Source of the DNA: a phage
Reading direction: 5' to 3' (one strand)
Sequence record: PZ171033.1
DNA length: 64,000 bases
Below, one piece after another: positions 9,562 through 49,582 of this stretch (positions are counted from its first letter, which is position 1; each line of letters starts with the position of its first letter). Under the pieces are notes generated by a model. The model was not told the DNA's origin. It worked only from the letters and a program-made list of their open reading frames with translations, and did no database searches. A program made the translations under genes and the position numbers.

Positions 9562-10282
9562 TCTGGTAGGTGGCTCAGAAGCTGCTGCTATTTGTGGTAG
9601 TGTTCGTAATTCTGATGCTATTGCTTATCAGGATTCTGGACGTGTCGGCTCCATACATAGCATTTATCATCACTGTACTTATACTTTGGAAACTCAGTGA
9701 TAAAAACGGTGGTGACAAGCCGCCAGAGTAACAACAACAACCGAACCAGTGGACTTTAATACTCTCCGAAGTCCACAGGTTCAATCTAAACTAAGCGGAA
9801 AAGTTAGCTTTTTCTTGGGTGTAGAACCTGTTGAAGGAAACAAAGAATTTCACATTGAATAGTTAATATCGTAAAGGGTTCTGTTAGAATCCTTTGAGAT
9901 AGGAACTCCTATCATAACTATTCTTAACTTAATCTTTGCCGTATGGCACTGACGCTAGGGGTGGCCCCCCATCCGTCAGGTAGACTATTTTAAGAATGGG
10001 TTATCACAGCAAATGTAAAGCAACATTCGGGTTAATCAATGGCCTCTCCCTATAGGGGCCATTTCTGAATCTTAGGCTATATCCCAAAGGTTAGTATCTT
10101 TGGGATAAGGCTTCAGATCTCTTATCAACTAACGCTCATGTTGAGCATTCTACTCACACAAGCCCCTATATGGGCTGGGTTAAATGTCGGATAGCATAGC
10201 TACCTACAGCATCGAGATGTTAGGTCTTACATGTAATATAGGGTATAAAGGGAGGACTCGTCCCCTCCCTCCTATTATAATG

Positions 10283-10352
10283 GTCGGGGTAGCACGTAGG
10301 CATGTGCGGATGGTCGCTACTTCCCTCGCTGGTTCGAATCCAGCCCCCGACT
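10283..10352 (+). tRNA. tRNA-like gene (possible pseudo-tRNA)
   Basis: 7-bp acceptor GTCGGGG/CCCCGAC, U8A9, D-arm GCAC-GTAGGCAT-GTGC, T-arm GCTGG-TTCGAAT-CCAGC; anticodon arm imperfect by eye. Confidence 0.4.
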
Positions 10353-10903
10353 TACTGACATCCTATCAATGAGTACATTAGGCTAACGTGCGGAGGTTTA
10401 CACTGTAGCCGGTGTAGGTGGAGAAGACGGCAGGGTAGCTACCTGTGCTTAGTGTACTCTTTGATAGTTTTCGTAAGCGATTATGCGGTTTTTTAGAAAC
10501 GAACCAATAACATAAATGCAAACGATGATGTTGTTCTGATGGCGGCGTAATAGCCTGTAAGTCAGCAAGGTCTTCCGACTCCTTGTAAGCAAATTCGGCG
10601 CAGTGGCCCGCTGTGATTAATAATGGGCACACAACAGGTAAGAGCATTTAGGCTACTGAGAAATCATCCGAGGCAATCAGACCTATCTTCTGTTAAGTGC
10701 TCTTTCCGTTGTGGTGAATGCGCAGGCTGATGCGCAGTGGGACGTGGCTGACTCACGAGGATGGCTCAAGCGAATAAGCAAGCTCGACGCCGCCGAATAA
10801 GCGCCTTATGCCGGAGATCAGCACCGGCCACCACAACAAGTCCAGACGATATCTGAGTGACTATAAAAACAGATGGAGCCAGGTGGAATCCCTGGCAACT
10901 AAT

Positions 10904-10969
10904 TCCGGTGTAGGTACTAGTGTCGTGCACGGCATGAGCATTCTGGTTCGAGTCCAGACGCCGGAACCA
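10904..10969 (+). tRNA. short tRNA-like module ending in encoded CCA
   Basis: T-arm TCTGG-TTCGAGT-CCAGA, acceptor TCCGGTG/CGCCGGA, discriminator A plus CCA; too short for a canonical tRNA. Confidence 0.3.
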
Positions 10970-10971
10970 AT

Positions 10972-11095
10972 TATCAGTTGCACGAGATGGCTTGACATGT
11001 TCAAGTTTGGACTAAGTGTGACACCGCTAGATTGGAGGGCTGCTGCGGTAAGCTATAGACTCCAACCGGAGGTTCGAATCCTTCACTGATAACCA
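10972..11095 (+). ncRNA. oversized tRNA-like RNA (124 nt) ending in encoded CCA
   Basis: Acceptor TATCAGT (10972) pairs with ACTGATA (11085) right after T-arm GGAGG-TTCGAAT-CCTTC; ~50 nt of extra internal sequence. Confidence 0.3.
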
Positions 11096-11177
11096 ATTCA
11101 AAGTAGCATTGCACTAACCCATCCCGGAGTTCAAAGGCCAAACATGGAGCAGTGCTACTCTGAATTAGAAGAATTAT

Positions 11178-11287
11178 GGTGGGTCTGGTGAAGTAGATAG
11201 GGTTCGATTCCCTCCGGTAGAGTAATCTACTAGCGTGCTTGGTGCACGAATAAGACTTAATACTGGTGGTTCAATTCCATCCCCCAC
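11178..11287 (+). ncRNA. oversized tRNA-like RNA (~110 nt)
   Basis: T-arm GGTGG-TTCAATT-CCATC followed by CCCCACT pairing with GGTGGG at 11178; contains a second internal GGTTCGATTCC T-loop-like motif. Confidence 0.25.
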
Positions 11288-11732
11288 TGCCTATTTGAGG
11301 TGTAACAGTTAAATCCAGTTGCCGGAAGTGCTATTCTAGATACGCTGCCAATGTGTGAACGGTAAGGCTGTACAGGACTCGGACTCCCACCTCAAACCAA
11401 AGTCGCCAGATACTTATGGCAAACGGGTAGTAACGAACTAGTCATTCGTCAAACGCCCACCCTATTATGAGTCAGCAAGAACGCCTTCATTTAAACTTAA
11501 ACAAAAAAGCTTAACGCAATAATTATGTAGGGGTATGTAAGGATTGCGAAGAAGGAGCCAGTTAAAGTCTGGCATGACTCACCTAATTGAGGCTGTACTT
11601 ATGTTCTACAGTAGGTGCACAACACTGGGCTGCTACACCCAGAGGTACAGCCTCACCCTATTATGGGTAGCCTATACTAGTTATAGGGCAGATAATCTGT
11701 GGCAGTGTAAGGCTGCACTACCCTTTCATTAA

Positions 11733-11808
11733 TACCCGGTAGGCTTAGTGGTAAAGCCCCACTAGTAAACCAACTAGGACGCAGGTTCGAATCCTGTCCG
11801 GGTAGCCA
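11733..11808 (+). tRNA. tRNA-like gene with encoded CCA
   Basis: Acceptor TACCCGG/CCGGGTA, U8A9, D-arm GGCT-TAGTGGTAA-AGCC, T-arm GCAGG-TTCGAAT-CCTGT, G then CCA; anticodon arm atypical (6-nt loop by eye). Confidence 0.5.
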
Positions 11809-11813
11809 TTTAT

Positions 11814-11898
11814 GCCCACTTAGCTCAGTGGTAGAGCGCAGGAAAGCTTCGAGAGAACAAGGTGTCTGTGGTCACTGGTTCAAATCCAGTAGTGGGTA
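11814..11898 (+). tRNA. tRNA-like gene, long-arm (class II-like) length
   Basis: Canonical D-arm GCTCAGTGGTAGAGC, T-arm ACTGG-TTCAAAT-CCAGT, acceptor GCCCACT/AGTGGGT; 36-nt anticodon/variable region does not fold canonically by eye. Confidence 0.45.
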
Positions 11899-12213
11899 CT
11901 TATTTGCTGCAATATTCCCATAGGGAATGGTGTCGTATACGCCACCTAGTTTCTGGTGAAACTCCAGATGCAGCAATCCATTCAGCAGTAACATAGTCCT
12001 GATTGCATTGCACTCTAAAGACAACACTGGTAAGACAGTCCAGTGGCTGCTATTGTATTGTTATTCCCCTCGACGGGAATTTCGCTAGTGAAGGTAACAC
12101 TTAAAAATCCAAACCCACGTCTTACTGCTATCGGGCTATCAACCCACAGTCGCTTAACACACTAGTGGTAGTAGTTTGACGACCTAGCCTCGTTAGCTGC
12201 GTTAAAGCTACTA

Positions 12214-12249
12214 AGTCCCCTAGAGGGGCGGCTCTAGGGGACTTTTTTA
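12214..12249 (+). terminator. rho-independent terminator
   Basis: 12-bp stem AGTCCCCTAGAG/CTCTAGGGGACT then TTTTTTATTT. Confidence 0.7.
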
Positions 12250-12250
12250 T

Positions 12251-37379: not shown

Positions 37380-37596
37380 AATATTACCGTAGTTGTGTAG
37401 TTAGAATCCCCAATAGGGTCATATCATAAGATGACTCTTAGATAATACTTAGTAAGATGAGGTACATCCAGACATAGTGTCTGATATCAGCTCATGGTGG
37501 GTGGTATTCAGTTGGGTATGTTTAATATATCCGAGTAAGTAATTACCCTAACAGCAGTATCAATTAGGGTAATGCAAACAGTAAACTCTATATAAG

Positions 37597-37620
37597 AAAA
37601 GGCCCGTTCGGGCCTTTGTT
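37597..37620. terminator. bidirectional terminator in tail region
   Basis: GGCCC-GTTC-GGGCC flanked by A-run and T-run. Confidence 0.6.
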
Positions 37621-43432: not shown

Positions 43433-45043
43433 TCACACAATGTATGAACGTAGTGGATTAACACTATCTTCTTCTTCCTCATCCCACATTGGGTCACCCT
43501 TGTTATCCACCAAAGTCATACCTGCTTGTGGTTTCCAAGGATTGAGATAACCCAGCATGGAGATAGTATCAATACAGTCATCCTTACCTTTAATCCCATT
43601 AATGGTAGCTAGTTTAATCTGGCCCATGAACAGACCCATAATAGTCGTATCTCTCAACTCTTCTGGGAAGTACATCTTACCAGCTTTGAACCATGGAACT
43701 ACCAGGTTAAAGCGTGACAGTTTAGAGGTTACAGGACGGATGCCTGGCTTACCACCCTCAGAGGATGCAAAGTTAAAGAAGACATTACGGTTAATCATTT
43801 CTTTCTGAAGGAGTGAGATAAATCCATTTTGTTGTCCTGTAATTTCGACACCAACGTTTTGTGGTTGGTATTCCTGAACCAGACGGAAGAGGTCGTCAAA
43901 GTTCTTATCCATAAGCTGACGATTAGCCACACCATCAACCCAGAACCAATCTCCATTAGAACTATAAGCCCAAACTGATATGACACTGTAGTCACTGGTC
44001 TGTTTCTCCGAAGTAGCAAAGTCAGTTGTAATATAATAGTTGTAGCAGGACTTCATCCTTAACAGTTGCTGTCTGCTGTACCATTTAATCTCACTATCCT
44101 GAACAAGGCGTTCATCTTCAGAACTAATACGAAGCATAAGTTCCTGGTAGAAGCCAGCCAGCTTACCAGTCTTAACTGCCATGTCATATTGGGCTTTGAT
44201 GTAGTCGTAGGAGAAACGGTCATCCCATGCACCCTGAAATTCTTCTCTACTACAGGGGAACTTCTCACATACAGGCCATACGTTTACATCCCATGCACCA
44301 GACTCTACTGCTTCAATGATAATGTCTTCCTTATTAAAGGGAGTACCATTGAAGATTACTTTACGACGAGTAGGGTCAAGAGCATGGTTCACACCTTTAT
44401 AAACAGTATCTTTAATAGCTTCCATGCTAGTCTTAGAGTTAGCATCACCATCACTAATCAAGTCATCCAGTACACAGAGTGTTGGACGTTTACCATATAT
44501 CTTCGTACCACGAAGACCTGTCTTAGCACCAAACAACTTAACACCAAGTCGATGTCCTTCTACATTACGGAACTCCAGTAGGTTATCCGTAAAGGTAGCT
44601 TCAGGTATCCATTGCTGAAGGAACTCACTATTCTTGTAACGAAATTCAATGTTCTTACGTGCAGACTTAGCACCGTTATCCATTGAGTCAGATACGTAAA
44701 TCATTCCTTCTACTTTACCCAGGCTAGGTAAGTGACCAAACACTGCCAGAAACAAAGTAAAGTATTCCATGAATACAGCAGTCTTACCTGCACCACGGAA
44801 GCACAGGTTAACTACATACTGGTTCGGACTAATCATCTTATCCAGCATCTTCAGGTGAACTGGAGGTGTTTTGTTGGATTCACCTTCTTTGCCATTAACC
44901 AACTTAATAAAGTTGGCAAAGGTAAGAGCAAACTGACTAGGAACATAGTTAGATGAATTAAGGTGGGAGTAATCCACCTGGTCCAGCCATTCATCTAGTT
45001 CCTGTTTAATTAACTCAGACATCTGTAATGTCCTCATCTGCAC
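43433..45043 (-). CDS. terminase large subunit
   Basis: Walker A FRGAGKTAV, Walker B-like LCVLDDLISD, C-terminal nuclease-type acidic residues; 536 aa. Confidence 0.85.
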   Translation of the reverse strand: MQMRTLQMSELIKQELDEWLDQVDYSHLNSSNYVPSQFALTFANFIKLVNGKEGESNKTPPVHLKMLDKMISPNQYVVNLCFRGAGKTAVFMEYFTLFLAVFGHLPSLGKVEGMIYVSDSMDNGAKSARKNIEFRYKNSEFLQQWIPEATFTDNLLEFRNVEGHRLGVKLFGAKTGLRGTKIYGKRPTLCVLDDLISDGDANSKTSMEAIKDTVYKGVNHALDPTRRKVIFNGTPFNKEDIIIEAVESGAWDVNVWPVCEKFPCSREEFQGAWDDRFSYDYIKAQYDMAVKTGKLAGFYQELMLRISSEDERLVQDSEIKWYSRQQLLRMKSCYNYYITTDFATSEKQTSDYSVISVWAYSSNGDWFWVDGVANRQLMDKNFDDLFRLVQEYQPQNVGVEITGQQNGFISLLQKEMINRNVFFNFASSEGGKPGIRPVTSKLSRFNLVVPWFKAGKMYFPEELRDTTIMGLFMGQIKLATINGIKGKDDCIDTISMLGYLNPWKPQAGMTLVDNKGDPMWDEEEEDSVNPLRSYIV

Positions 45044-45704
45044 GAACTAGTTTAGAACCAGCAACCTCTTTGGTAGGTACACCACTATTGATTGCATTGA
45101 TTTGCTGCTCAGCTAATGCAGCAAGTGTTGCCTTGAGGTCAGTTAATCCAGAGTTCTCTCTCAAGTCCAGATTGATATTTGTTACCTGGTCTTTCGGTTT
45201 AGCTAAGTGAGTAAGGATAGAGTTAGCTGCATCACATCTTACTTTCTCACTCGCTGCTGTAGTCATTAGTTCAACCTGAACGTTGATAGCCTTCTGATAA
45301 TTATCTTGGTTCACAATCCACACTGGAACCAAACTTTGTTCCATGATGAGGTTAACTAGCTTACCCCTGTGGTAAGCAGATACATAAGCACTAATATCTT
45401 TCTCACTGGTTCCTCGTGCTACGAGTTCTGCTTGTCGGTTGGGGAATGTCTTGAAGTAGGCTTCCTTATTTGAGTAGCCCATGTGCTTGTAAGTCACATA
45501 CTGAACTGCATTCATGTAGTCCTGTGTCTTAAACTTACCTTCCTTCATTACACCAGAGTAGGAGATAAAGTTTTCACGGAAGGACTCAGCAACCAGTTGG
45601 TCTTGGGTTATGTTGTTAATCGTGTCTACCAACTCCTGGGTCACACTGTTTTTGAAGTTAGCAGGTAGTGCATTAATAATCTGCTGCTTAGTTAGTTCAC
45701 TCAT
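45015..45704 (-). CDS. putative terminase small subunit / first gene of late operon
   Basis: 229 aa, overlaps terminase large start; call by position. Confidence 0.4.
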   Translation of the reverse strand: MSELTKQQIINALPANFKNSVTQELVDTINNITQDQLVAESFRENFISYSGVMKEGKFKTQDYMNAVQYVTYKHMGYSNKEAYFKTFPNRQAELVARGTSEKDISAYVSAYHRGKLVNLIMEQSLVPVWIVNQDNYQKAINVQVELMTTAASEKVRCDAANSILTHLAKPKDQVTNINLDLRENSGLTDLKATLAALAEQQINAINSGVPTKEVAGSKLVRADEDITDV

Positions 45705-45875
45705 ACTTATCTCGCTACAAAGTTATGTCTATTAAAGAAGATTCTTTTCTTGGGGTGAGTTACCCCTTGAAGAAACGATACCATACAGTTACACTTTAGT
45801 CATGATATAGAAAAAGTTCATGATACTAAATAGTATGTAATGTTCCGATGACCCTATTCCCAAAAGGAGTAACAT

Positions 45876-46166
45876 TTGAGAATCTATATGAGAGTCCATG
45901 ACTCTAAAGATGAATACGCAGAGGTAGACCACACCGAAGCTGGTATTCTTTCAGATGATATTATCATCACACATGATGAAGATACCTATCATGAATTAGC
46001 TGGGATGATGCTTTTAGAGAATCGTCCGGGCATTAACATCCTGGAACCAAGAGAAACTTACTCTTTAGAAAAACGTTTTTCAGCTCTCGTGTTCTTCACA
46101 AAATTACCTCATAGTGTCTCCGTCAGGCGAAGCAAAGACAGTGTTCGGATGACGGTGACGATGTGA
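45876..46166 (+). CDS. early protein, paralog family member 1
   Basis: Shares core IIITHDEDTYHELAGMMLLENRPGINILEP with neighbouring ORFs. Confidence 0.55.
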   Translation: MRIYMRVHDSKDEYAEVDHTEAGILSDDIIITHDEDTYHELAGMMLLENRPGINILEPRETYSLEKRFSALVFFTKLPHSVSVRRSKDSVRMTVTM

Positions 46167-46317
46167 TTAGTCATGCCGCCTAGTAGACAGTGGCGGTACT
46201 CGTAAAGAGTTAATAACTTCTACAGTCAGGGTTGCCCGGCTCCTTTCCTACCTAGTAGGCTAACGATACACATGTATCTAGGGTGATGAACTGGCCCGTG
46301 ATAGAAAACGGTAAGGG

Positions 46318-46357
46318 GTAGAGTCGAGAGGCTCTACCCCATTTCTTTTTTAGGAGG
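46318..46357 (+). terminator. rho-independent terminator
   Basis: 9-bp stem GGGGTAGAG/CTCTACCCC then ATTTCTTTTTT. Confidence 0.7.
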
Positions 46358-46366
46358 TATGCAAAT

Positions 46367-46762
46367 ATGAGCATCTACGCTTTTGATATTGATATTACCG
46401 GTGTACTTCGTAAGCAGGAACCCTACTACCTAGGGGAACCAGAGATGGTAAGTAAGTTCTTATCTAAACATGCAGTCTTCCTACCAGACTGTGAAGAATC
46501 CCATGAGATAGTTGGTTCATTCTTCTTAAGTAACCTGCAAATCAATACACGTATACTTACTGAACCAGTTGTGTATGACCTTACTGAGTATGCAGACTTC
46601 GAAACATTCTTCCCAGGAGTTAGGTTCTATAAAGTACCTGGCTGGGAAATGATTGTTGAACATAACCTCTTTAATAAAACACTTTCCATTTACTTCAGAC
46701 CTATCCCTAAAGGAAGGAAAATCCATCATGAAATTCATACTGACCGCCCCCAGTTTTATTAA
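46367..46762 (+). CDS. early protein, paralog family member 2
   Basis: Core AVFLPDCEESHEIVGSFFLSNLQINTRILTEP; strong RBS AGGAGG; preceded by terminator. Confidence 0.6.
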   Translation: MSIYAFDIDITGVLRKQEPYYLGEPEMVSKFLSKHAVFLPDCEESHEIVGSFFLSNLQINTRILTEPVVYDLTEYADFETFFPGVRFYKVPGWEMIVEHNLFNKTLSIYFRPIPKGRKIHHEIHTDRPQFY

Positions 46763-47042
46763 AGGGGAATCCTTATACACAACAGACTTTACTTTAGAAG
46801 AAGTCATAGACAGCAACCCTCAGCATGTAATTCTGGTTCCTACCCTAGAGGACTACCATGAAGTAAGGGGTCAACTCTTCTTAGCAGGTAATGATCGTAA
46901 GGTTGTGTGTATCATTCCTCCTTCTGTCTATACCAATAGTGGTGCGTATGATGCTCTACCTTTTATGTTGGTATCCGAGGACTACCAATGGGATAGTCGC
47001 TACGAGAATGAGGAATACCGCTACTACTATGTAAGGAAGTAA
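46728..47042 (+). CDS. early protein, paralog family member 3
   Basis: Core HVILVPTLEDYHEVRGQLFLAGNDRKVVCIIPP; internal ATG start chosen over track start 46653. Confidence 0.55.
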   Translation: MKFILTAPSFIKGESLYTTDFTLEEVIDSNPQHVILVPTLEDYHEVRGQLFLAGNDRKVVCIIPPSVYTNSGAYDALPFMLVSEDYQWDSRYENEEYRYYYVRK

Positions 47043-47045
47043 GAT

Positions 47046-47363
47046 ATGCACTTCTATGGTTTGAGCTATCGTAGTACCAACCCCCTTAATCTGGGGGTAG
47101 GTAAATCCCATTGGATGAGAATAAGCACGCCTATGACCATGTACTACGAACAATGTGAAAAAGCGGATGAGTTCATCGGAACCTGTCTATTATTAGGCGT
47201 ACCTATTACCTTTATTAAAATAGATACTTCCATTGAAGTTCCAGAGAATGTAGTTGTATACATCTACTCTTCCTGTGAACCTCTGATAGAAACTACCCTT
47301 ACGGGTAGACTTATTACCCTCTACCCTTCTACCTCATATTTATCTAGCGACGAGAGTCTCTAA
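47046..47363 (+). CDS. early protein, divergent paralog family member 4
   Basis: Same size class and tandem position; weaker core match (EQCEKADEFIGTCLLLG). Confidence 0.45.
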   Translation: MHFYGLSYRSTNPLNLGVGKSHWMRISTPMTMYYEQCEKADEFIGTCLLLGVPITFIKIDTSIEVPENVVVYIYSSCEPLIETTLTGRLITLYPSTSYLSSDESL

Positions 47364-47647
47364 TGGTTATCAGTAAAATTTATCCAGAGCCTAATGAGGA
47401 AAATTACATCCTCCATAAAGAAATAGCTGACCCGAATGCTGATGTACTTATCCTGGTTCCAGATGAACAGTCTCTACATGTGATACAAGGATTACTCTTC
47501 CTATACAATAAGAATTCGGTAGTACATCTACTTGAACCAGAAACACCTATGTCCTGGCAGGGTAGCTTTAGTCCTTGGCATCTTAATACAGACAAGTACA
47601 TCCTTTCATTCGAGGGTAACACTCCCATCTATAAGGAAAGGAACTAA
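47363..47647 (+). CDS. early protein, paralog family member 5
   Basis: Core DVLILVPDEQSLHVIQGLLFLYNKNSVVHLLEP. Confidence 0.55.
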   Translation: MVISKIYPEPNEENYILHKEIADPNADVLILVPDEQSLHVIQGLLFLYNKNSVVHLLEPETPMSWQGSFSPWHLNTDKYILSFEGNTPIYKERN

Positions 47648-47650
47648 AAC

Positions 47651-47989
47651 ATGAACGTTAAGCTCTTGGGAATGAGTGGTACTGACTTACTGCATTATTC
47701 CTCTGTACCAGAAAAAGCAATCATCCATATTATGACCTATGGGAGTTCTACACTAATAATGGAACCAGGAGAGTTAGCAGACTTTGCACAGGGGCATAAA
47801 CTTATTACTAACAGTAATGCAGAGATAGTTATCCTGCAAAACGGTGAGTCAGTCTCCATACCATTGGGAGATTATGCTCATGTGTTTATCAAAGATGCTA
47901 CCGTAAGGAATAGTAGTGGTAACCCTAACCATCCTGACTATTACTCTGGCATAGCACGTATCATCACCAGAACCTCCCCTCCTATTTAA
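47651..47989 (+). CDS. early protein, possible divergent paralog 6
   Basis: Tandem position, similar size; weak core match (ELADFAQGHKLITNSNAEIVIL). Confidence 0.45.
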   Translation: MNVKLLGMSGTDLLHYSSVPEKAIIHIMTYGSSTLIMEPGELADFAQGHKLITNSNAEIVILQNGESVSIPLGDYAHVFIKDATVRNSSGNPNHPDYYSGIARIITRTSPPI

Positions 47990-48148
47990 CTGCTTATAAG
48001 TGAGATAGCTATGATATTTTTGCATGTCAAAATGTTGATAGCTATGTATGGCTACAGTGGTGTGGCTGGGGCTACACCCTTACACTCAACCATCCCCCCC
48101 GGTATGTTGACCGTGTAGCCACTACCCTACCCCACCTTACACGTTACA

Positions 48149-48161
48149 CATGCTCCGCATG
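48149..48161 (+). promoter_or_regulatory. vRNAP-promoter-like hairpin (5-bp stem, 3-nt loop)
   Basis: CATGC-TCC-GCATG; template strand reads GCGGAGC; 44 nt upstream of ORF 48205. Confidence 0.45.
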
Positions 48162-48204
48162 TTATGGACATGTCGTCCTATCATCAACTATTGGAGCTAT
48201 CATC

Positions 48205-48528
48205 ATGACCACTACCGCTACTGTACGTATGACTGCAGGAACTTTACTTGGTACTGTTAACTCAGCTGCTACTACTGTTGCAGATACATTTGGTACAGCA
48301 ACTAAAGCAGTAGGTATGCTTAATTCATATGTAAGTACTATGGCAGAGAAACAAGCCATCCGTACTAAATTAGAAATGCATACCTTTGTTAATAAACTGG
48401 CAGAGGAAACAGCTATGACTGAGACTCTGCGTAAGAAAAGTATCGAGGAATTCTGCAAGGATTCAGAGAACGCTCGTATCTATAACGCAGAATATTCCAA
48501 AGTAATTGACATCCTGACTAAAGACTAA
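48205..48528 (+). CDS. hypothetical early protein
   Basis: ORF with GGAG RBS, downstream of promoter-like hairpin 48149-48161; terminator follows. Confidence 0.5.
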   Translation: MTTTATVRMTAGTLLGTVNSAATTVADTFGTATKAVGMLNSYVSTMAEKQAIRTKLEMHTFVNKLAEETAMTETLRKKSIEEFCKDSENARIYNAEYSKVIDILTKD

Positions 48529-48535
48529 GTCACAT

Positions 48536-48562
48536 AGGAGACTCTTCGGAGTCTCCTGTTTT
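48536..48562 (+). terminator. rho-independent terminator
   Basis: AGGAGACTC-TTCG-GAGTCTCCT then GTTTT. Confidence 0.65.
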
Positions 48563-48637
48563 GAACATTAGATAGATAGTCAAAAGTAGATAACTATCTA
48601 CTTTAAGTTAACTAACTCGCACTATCTTTAAAAGAAA

Positions 48638-48650
48638 GACGCTCCGCGTC
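48638..48650 (+). promoter_or_regulatory. vRNAP-promoter-like hairpin (5-bp stem, 3-nt loop)
   Basis: GACGC-TCC-GCGTC; same GCTCCGC core; upstream of ORF 48762. Confidence 0.45.
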
Positions 48651-48761
48651 TAAAGGATAAGAATGAATCCACTTCTTATCGAAATCTTAAGTCTTTTCTT
48701 GGGTTTAGTCACCGACAGACAAACCCATAAATCAAAAAATCATTTATCTGGAGAGTACAAA

Positions 48762-49142
48762 ATGTCTATTCAAAAATTCACTTTCGGTCAATCTAACACT
48801 GCTGCTTCTACTGCTAAAGCTGATAAACCAAAAGCTCAGTTCTGGCTGAACATTGGTTATGTGGCTAATGAAGGCTCTGATGATGAGAAATTCATCTCAC
48901 TGCCTACTGGTATTCCATTGGATACTCAGGAACCGCTGCCTACTAACAGCAGCAATGCTGACTTCCGTGCTATGCGTTGTGCACAGAACGATTTGCTGGA
49001 ACAGTTAATCGAATATGCTCAGAACCTGGAACCAGGTGAAGAGGGTATCATTAACCTGCAAGTTCAACTTCGTCGTGTGAAAGCAGAGGCTGCTGACATC
49101 CCAGCAGACGAGAATAAATATGCTCGTAAACTGACTTTCTAA
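48762..49142 (+). CDS. hypothetical early protein (possible N4 gp2-like ssDNA-binding activator; speculative)
   Basis: Internal ATG with GGAGAG RBS preferred over track start 48663; flanked by promoter-like hairpin and strong terminator. Confidence 0.45.
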
Positions 49143-49152
49143 TCAACCAATA

Positions 49153-49180
49153 GACTCCCTTCAGGGAGTCTTTTATTTTT
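49153..49180 (+). terminator. rho-independent terminator
   Basis: AGACTCCC-TTCA-GGGAGTCT then TTTTATTTTT. Confidence 0.7.
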
Positions 49181-49285
49181 AACTAGACGATAAGCTATTT
49201 CTACTTTTTGAGTATCTTTAGACGAAGGGTACTGAAACAGTAACCAGATAGATATAGATTTATATTAGATGAAGGAGTAACCATT

Positions 49286-49582
49286 ATGCGTACAATTTGT
49301 AACCGTTATAACTCACAGAAGTTGATTGAAATGTTACAACCTTGGGGTAGTAAGATGGCACTGAATGCACGTTGGCAGGTATCTGTAGAAGGTGCAAATG
49401 GTCAGTGTTATGACCACTTCTTTGTAGCTAAGCCTACTCGTAAACAAATCCGTAAACTCCATAAAGTACGTAAGCATTACTTACTAAGCAAATGCTACGA
49501 ATGCGGAAAAAGGATAGAACTGGGTAAAGAATTTACCTGGGATGGCTTAAACTATGCACACACTGACTGCCTGAAAGGATAA
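49286..49582 (+). CDS. hypothetical protein with Cys/His cluster
   Basis: C-terminal CYECGKRIELGKEFTWDGLNYAHTDC; GAAGGAG RBS. Confidence 0.5.
   Translation: MRTICNRYNSQKLIEMLQPWGSKMALNARWQVSVEGANGQCYDHFFVAKPTRKQIRKLHKVRKHYLLSKCYECGKRIELGKEFTWDGLNYAHTDCLKG

Follow-up and report, generated by a model that had tools for sequence, protein, structure and literature searches.

The gp69/gp70 gap of a G7C-like phage is a conserved, probably regulatory divergent region inside the genome, not a genome end

The 171-bp gap that separates the late genes from the small rightward genes of this phage is an ordinary conserved divergent region inside the genome, probably regulatory, and not a genome end. We put a probability of roughly 0.8 on the joint reading that the window (the whole 64,000-nucleotide stretch analysed, from record PZ171033.1) is a permuted Gamaleyavirus contig, that its gp69/gp70 control region is internal, that the two genome ends are joined at 48062-48463, and that the gap carries putative divergent sigma-70-type promoters. 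The architecture and termini of the N4/G7C-like phage group are already described. The sole, mildly new point is a hairpin element conserved across genera, whose role is conjectural.

Layout of the window and genes flanking the gap

By its homologies, the window is identified as a circularly permuted piece of a G7C-like (Gamaleyavirus, Schitoviridae) N4-type coliphage. DNA searches gave ~90% identity to PE007, 24-32N, Mimir124, SP5M, PhAPEC5, ECBP1 and other G7C-like coliphages. The features that matter for the gap and its surroundings are the following.

Up to ~13.4 kb of the window, + strand: middle genes
13447-45704, - strand: 3456-aa virion RNA polymerase ORF, structural and packaging genes
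43433-45043, - strand: N4 gp68-like large terminase subunit, which follows gp69 in the leftward operon (phrog_38, E = 2e-100; relatives' annotations)
45015-45704, - strand: gp69-like gene, first of the leftward late/packaging operon, ATG start at 45704
45705-45875, no strand: divergent intergenic control region gp69/gp70, 171 bp (ORF map and conservation)
45876 onward, + strand: small genes
45876-46166, + strand: N4 gp70-like ORFan, TTG start (phrog_7213; alignment with gp70 of N4, KP8, Moo19 and G7C)
46367-47989, + strand: gp71-like gene and four small ORFans, the rest of the right-end block (PHROG matches; relatives' annotations)

The sequence-only reading had described a divergent 171-bp junction at 45705-45875, and the ORF map bears out these coordinates exactly, with leftward gp69 on one side and rightward gp70 on the other. 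The gp69-like ORF matches phrog_2109 (E = 1e-105) and shares 77% amino acid identity with N4 gp69. Homologues of gp69 occur in 465 phage records, and several relatives' records annotate the protein as terminase small subunit. On the other side of the gap, we take TTG 45876 to be the true gp70 start: a Shine-Dalgarno sequence, AAGGAG, lies 6 nt 5' of it, and the N-terminus read from it, MR[LI][FY], lines up with those that begin at ATG in N4 and KP8 gp70. GenBank relatives place the gp70 start at an ATG 12 nt downstream of this TTG. Pfam returned no match for gp69, the six right-end ORFs, gp1 or gp2, and an Rfam search of 45000-49500 gave nothing at gathering score, with two sub-threshold chance hits only.

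The same arrangement is found in N4 (NC_008720, gap at 68895-69054) and G7C (NC_015933, gap at 70042-70224 as annotated), with the same flanking genes in the same divergent orientation. Like the gap in the window, these two are internal, with the right terminal repeat at most a few kb away. All three share an GATTCTTTTCTTGGGG...CCCCTTG(A/C)AGAAAC hairpin element, -35/-10-like boxes with a 17-bp spacer and a CCTATT..AAAGGA ribosome-site block.

Homology identifies the genes at 45876-47989 as an N4 gp70/gp71-type right-end accessory block, which comprises six rightward genes in this phage and three in N4 and in both occupies the stretch up to the right terminal repeat, here ~2.2 kb. They are ORFans with PHROG matches only, and the homology of gp70 and gp71 to N4 was already remarked on by the annotators of PhAPEC5 and G7C. 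Only 3-5 of 11 close relatives carry the last two small ORFs (47363-47989), which thus form a variable accessory cassette before the right repeat. Within the block, gp70 and gp71 are separated by a 200-bp non-coding gap (46167-46366) that is ~97% conserved among 11 genomes at 46150-46250. It contains a hairpin, CCGCC (46176-46180)...GGCGG (46192-46196), and an TTAATAAC block also present in the equivalent N4 and KP8 gaps, and it ends with a strong terminator (46315-46340). This second gap, which has no match in Rfam, is possibly a small RNA or a leader.

Conservation, hairpin and direct repeats of the gap

The gap is under strong sequence constraint. Across 11 distinct G7C-like genomes, 149 of its 171 columns are invariant, and its identity is 95.1%, versus 93.4% for gp69 and 85.7% for gp70. 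The stretch 45800-45849, which includes both copies of a direct repeat, is 100% invariant in these genomes. The gap ranks with the most conserved non-coding DNA of the phage group, making it a reasonable target for studying the timing of terminase expression. Four blocks are kept across genera (Moo19, N4, Klebsiella KP8 and VLCpiP4a); the DNA match of Klebsiella phage VLCpiP4a is confined to window positions 45701-45774, at 81% identity.

Cross-genus block 1: GATTCTTTTCTTGGG
Cross-genus block 2: CCTTG(A/C)AGAA
Cross-genus block 3: TA(C/G)ACTTTAG
Cross-genus block 4: CCTATT(C/G)CC..AAAGGA, the ribosome-site block

Three further features of the gap have no strand assignment.

45740-45775: conserved element made of GATTCTTTTCTT, the hairpin and TTGAAGAAA (cross-genus comparison)
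45752-45766: hairpin GGGGT-GAGTT-ACCCC (sequence)
45800-45825: two TCATGATA copies, 18 bp apart (sequence; inside the 100% invariant stretch 45800-45849)

The hairpin had been called imperfect. It is present at 45752-45766, but its 5-bp stem GGGGT/ACCCC is perfect and closes a GAGTT loop. It folds on either strand, with z about -2, and 1.4% of simulations contained a GC-rich hairpin whose stem had 5 bp or more, versus 13% of the window's real 171-bp tiles. The direct repeats are also as previously reported, with TCATGATA copies at 45800-45807 and 45818-45825; an 8-mer direct repeat within 60 bp was found in 17% of composition-matched simulated 171-mers. Against chance alone, the hairpin and the TCATGATA repeats are therefore unremarkable, and it is their conservation that argues for their being real features.

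The stem is found in Gamaleyavirus, Moo19 and N4 and is shorter in KP8-like Klebsiella phages. Gamaleyavirus members have GGGGT-GAG(A/T)T-ACCCC, N4 has GGGGT-TAGC-ACCCC (loop TAGC versus GAGTT in the window), and KP8-like phages have GGT-TGAAAG/TTAAAT-ACC, with the stem shortened to GGT/ACC. A 15-mer scan of IMG/VR returned mostly chance matches; after filtering, 14 true loci were left, and one new Kaypoctavirus loop variant was added. The loop thus varies from 4 to 7 nt between genera while the flanks of the element persist. RNAalifold analyses of both strands with six distinct hairpin variants detected no compensatory changes, so that the structure gains no independent support from covariation, its base pairs being either invariant or lost. 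An apparent G-C to T-A swap in the KP8 stem depends on how the shorter stem is aligned.

The hairpin element was not found in Achromobacter phage Axy11, Erwinia phage Gutmeister, Salmonella phage UTK0001, Pollock and Pectobacterium phage Possum, five more distant Schitoviridae, indicating that it is limited to Enquatrovirinae. Upstream of gp69, these five phages have other organisations, with an extra leftward gene, tRNA arrays or a repeat ~300 bp away. In Possum, the annotated 636-bp repeat starts ~300 bp from gp69. In the Humphriesvirinae (Salmonella UTK0001, Pollock), tRNA arrays lie upstream of gp69, and a palindrome, AGTACTATATAGTACT, precedes the gene. An intrinsic (rho-independent) terminator was also considered for the hairpin and rejected, as neither strand has a T-run 3' of the stem and the terminator scan was negative.

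TCATGATA is not enriched window-wide (3 found versus 2.85 expected), and in a search for a promoter signature its one-mismatch variants elsewhere in the window were at chance level. N4 and KP8 lack it; the equivalent place in these phages holds two copies of TTTAGAC and a TACAAT. As a possible middle-promoter motif, CTTTAG(A/T)C or TTTAGAC is not enriched in the window. An 11-mer, ATGACCCTATT (45848-45858), is common to the gap and to a non-coding gap of the late block, near 37412, which is within chance, as ~5 such matches are expected. That gap in the late block, 240 bp long (37380-37620), carries a hairpin with a 10-bp stem, ATTACCCTAA...TTAGGGTAAT, and may be another late promoter region.

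Candidate divergent promoters

From its sequence, the gap most likely holds overlapping divergent sigma-70-type promoters together with the conserved hairpin. We listed -10-like hexamers with A2 and T6 and a -35 hexamer 16-18 bp away, which gave 8/12 sigma-70-type candidates, several of them overlapping, on both strands of the gap. A stricter scan tool, which demands at least 9/12 consensus matches, found no promoter inside the gap and no excess of promoter-like sites in 45400-48800. The assignments below rest on 8/12 consensus matches, which are common in AT-rich DNA.

45767-45795, + strand: best-supported candidate rightward promoter, -35 TTGAAG (45767-45772), 17-bp spacer, -10 TACACT (45790-45795), 8/12
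45803-45775, - strand: best candidate leftward gp69 promoter, -35 ATGACT (45803-45798), 17-bp spacer, extended -10 TGgTATCGT (45783-45775)

The rightward candidate has a predicted start near 45802. Its boxes keep a 17-bp spacer of variable sequence in Gamaleyavirus, Moo19, N4 (TTGCAG/TAGACT) and KP8 (TTGAAG/TAGACT); the N4 pair, a 7/12 match below the cutoff of our listing, was taken from the alignment. Both boxes sit in cross-genus blocks, and the 17 bp between them are the most variable part of the gap. For the leftward candidate, TGnTAnnGT is kept in six Gamaleyavirus/Moo19 haplotypes despite four variable neighbouring positions. This extended -10 is not kept in N4 or KP8, and the homologous place in these phages holds an overlapping pair, TTTAGA-16-TACAAT on the + strand and TTGTAA-17-TAAAGT on the - strand. 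On the - strand, TCATGATA reads TATCATGA, which yields two TATCAT boxes (5/6 of TATAAT) with poor -35 partners.

In N4, late transcription proceeds leftward within the genome's right half and uses the host sigma-70 polymerase together with N4SSB (PMC4496689), and N4SSB-activated sigma-70 late promoters of N4 were described by Cho et al. 1995, to the extent summarised in PMC4496689. In LUZ7, a relative of N4, the resemblance of late promoters to the sigma-70 consensus is only weak (PMC9163698). The leftward candidates of the gap are like these N4 and LUZ7 promoters in their orientation, their place at the head of the late operon, their -10-like boxes and their poor -35 sequences, a likeness of position and consensus only. 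In the searchable literature we found no transcript-start data for the gap region of N4 or G7C-like phages and nothing usable on mapped N4 middle or late promoter sequences.

We propose that the rightward TTGAAG-17-TACACT promoter would drive gp70 and the genes after it, and that transcription of the late terminase operon, aided by the phage SSB, would come from the leftward ATGACT-17-TGgTATCGT promoter, the two TATCAT boxes or both. The best leftward candidate would start transcription at ~45768, so that the gp69 mRNA would carry the GGGGT/ACCCC hairpin as a stem-loop at its very 5' end. Such 5'-terminal stem-loops are a common stabilising or regulatory feature of mRNAs. As the candidate promoters of the two directions physically overlap, they could compete. 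The right-end ORFans of LUZ7 are transcribed mid-infection, so that transcription of gp70 could be the work of the phage RNAP II instead of the host polymerase.

The GATTCTTTTCTT-stem-loop-TTGAAGAA arrangement is kept in Gamaleyavirus, Moovirus, Enquatrovirus and Kaypoctavirus, with a drifting loop length. It might be a dedicated, so far undescribed Enquatrovirinae cis-regulatory element rather than a passive 5' stem-loop, an idea that we hold to be a long shot but worth stating. Such an element could make the terminase late promoter SSB-dependent, or, as a switch, it could keep the overlapping rightward and leftward promoters from being active together.

An unlikely reading, compatible with promoters and not exclusive of them, is that the TTCTTGG...CCTTGAA dyad and/or the two TCATGA hexamers form a double-stranded operator through which a phage regulator switches the divergent units. 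The dyad symmetry, though imperfect, the total invariance of 45800-45849 and the overlap with the candidate promoters would suit an operator, and TCATGA is palindromic, so that the TCATGATA pair is also an inverted repeat. However, TTCTTGG and CCTTGAA are separated by 11 bp in Gamaleyavirus, 10 bp in N4 and 9 bp in KP8, which a rigid dimer would not tolerate, and a stem-loop fits better than a rigid double-stranded operator with flanks of constant sequence whose spacing varies by 2 bp. Moreover, TCATGATA is missing from N4 and KP8, and Pfam searches found no DNA-binding domain in the neighbouring small proteins.

Genome ends and the early region

The sequence-only reading had placed the end of the late genes at a physical end of N4. 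This is refuted by the N4 genome itself, in which gp69 (68202-68894, - strand) is followed by the rightward genes gp70, gp71 and gp72, which extend to 70076; the record, 70153 bp long, is non-redundant and leaves out the right repeat copy. The starts of gp69 and of the right repeat lie at 70041 and 71758 in G7C and at 69912 and 72366 in Mimir124. The gp69/gp70 junction is internal in the records of N4, G7C, Mimir124, 24-32N, PhAPEC5 and KP8, and in N4, G7C, Mimir124 and KP8 it is 1.2-2.3 kb away from the right terminal repeat. In every linear record, the gp69 and gp70 flanks of the gap belong to one unbroken stretch of the right arm. A change from late genes read leftward to small genes read rightward does not mark the genome ends of N4-like phages.

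The left ends of the G7C, Mimir124 and N4 records align to window positions 48062-48064, and at least 11 further distinct G7C-like phage records start at 48062-48070. The ends of Mimir124 were set by PhageTerm, with a 401-bp repeat, and its left end is the same as that of G7C, reported as verified by Sanger run-off (PMC11640937). Both annotated copies of the Mimir124 repeat (1-403 and 72366-72768) align to window 48062-48463, and the 24-32N record starts at the position equivalent to 48062 and ends at that equivalent to 48463.

48062-48463, + strand: direct terminal repeat, single collapsed copy, with 48062 as the physical left end; homology alone places the right boundary

Within the window, this repeat is found a single time, flanked by right-end unique sequence (47950-48061) and by left-end unique sequence from 48464. 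The contig therefore runs through a collapsed repeat at 48062-48463 and not at the gap. The proposal that the contig is joined through collapsed terminal repeats was hence right as to a permutation through a single repeat copy and wrong as to its place, the join being ~2.2 kb to the right of the gap. Nothing points to the different end structure suggested as an alternative; by homology, the ends are of the usual N4 type. Repeat length differs among N4-like phages (1160 bp as annotated in G7C, 401-403 bp in Mimir124, 636 bp in Possum). The repeat of the window, homologous to those of N4-like phages, opens with the conserved left-end sequence GTGGCTGGGGCTACACCC.

The left-terminal block at 48062-48147 (GTGGCTGGGGCTACACCCTTACAC...CCCCCCC...TACCCCACCTTACAC) is shared by G7C-like phages and N4, with conservation reaching as far as the first hairpin promoter, and on sequence grounds it is a better candidate than the gap for the terminase recognition or cutting site. 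We regard it as quite improbable that the gap is, instead of or besides a promoter region, a packaging recognition site or a replication origin. It adjoins the terminase genes, is non-coding and more conserved than the flanking genes, and has repeats and a hairpin. However, how far it lies from the right terminal repeat differs between phages (~2.2-2.3 kb in this phage and Mimir124, 1.5-1.7 kb for G7C, 1.1-1.3 kb for N4), which makes a cutting or recognition site unlikely, and the sequence conserved where the cut is made is that of the left-end block. The gap shows no iteron array, AT-rich unwinding stretch or skew switch specific to it, and the literature yielded nothing usable on an origin or a packaging site near the right end of N4.

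The genes to the right of the gap had been taken for the early region. The promoters of the N4 virion polymerase are DNA hairpins in which the stem has 5-7 bp and the loop 3 nt; a GC-rich heptamer, GC-T(C/T)C-GC on the non-template strand, is centred at -11 and followed by a T-run to a G start (PMC4496689). Our hairpin scan recovered N4 P1 at 90-102 and P2 at 557-573. Window-wide, GC-TCC-GC with a stem of at least 5 bp occurs at only three sites, all with a 6-bp stem and all on the + strand.

48148-48162, + strand: early promoter P1, ACATGC-TCC-GCATGT, inside the repeat, upstream of gp1, homologous to N4 P1
48637-48651, + strand: early promoter P2, AGACGC-TCC-GCGTCT, upstream of gp2, matches N4 P2
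52988-53002, + strand: early promoter P3, AGCTGC-TCC-GCAGCT (hairpin scan)

These positions indicate that the early region begins at the physical left end, 48062. The assignment of 45876-47989 to it is thus untenable, as these genes are the right-end block and early-promoter hairpins begin only at 48148. In the same window-wide scan, 45705-45875 showed no early-promoter features. Like N4 P1-P3, the GGGGT/ACCCC hairpin is a short, GC-rich DNA hairpin in an N4-like genome, and it is conserved among such phages; in addition, LUZ7 middle promoters are GC-rich hairpins with a 3-4-nt loop (PMC9163698). It is nevertheless very improbable that it serves as an N4-type single-stranded virion-polymerase promoter, for instance for a right-end early transcript or for replication priming. 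Its loop has 5 nt (4 in N4, 6-7 in KP8) and not the 3 nt of the established rules (PMC4496689), and it has no GC-T(C/T)C-GC heptamer. Downstream of it lie TTGAAGAAAC on the + strand and AAGAAAAGAA on the - strand, and neither strand has a T-run and G start spaced 11 nt from the loop centre. The three genuine promoters of the window are very uniform and located elsewhere, and the middle promoters of N4 are AT-rich and not hairpins.

That the gap joins the physical ends through collapsed repeats, or that the phage has an unusual end structure, is hardly credible: late genes do run leftward and small genes rightward from it, and the GenBank records of nithesis and Bas96 are cut exactly there, mimicking an end, but the junction is internal in the six records cited above, the termini reported as experimental or PhageTerm-determined map to 48062, and 45705-45875 has no homology to the terminal repeats of Mimir124 and G7C. 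The records concerned, PV252060 (nithesis) and PQ850623 (Bas96), end exactly at the gp69 start, equivalent to window position 45705, most likely through automatic re-orientation to the terminase gene rather than at physical ends. Such public records invite misreading the gap as a genome end. Re-orienting or trimming of contigs of this kind should be guided by the first hairpin promoter and by the conserved left-end sequence, which lies at 48062 here.

Away from the gap, the middle region includes a long, largely non-coding stretch at 9732-12250. It contains a tRNA-Ala gene (10282-10353) and an odd tRNA-like call with a 2-base anticodon (11733-11808), and more tRNA-like sequence is visible in its gaps.
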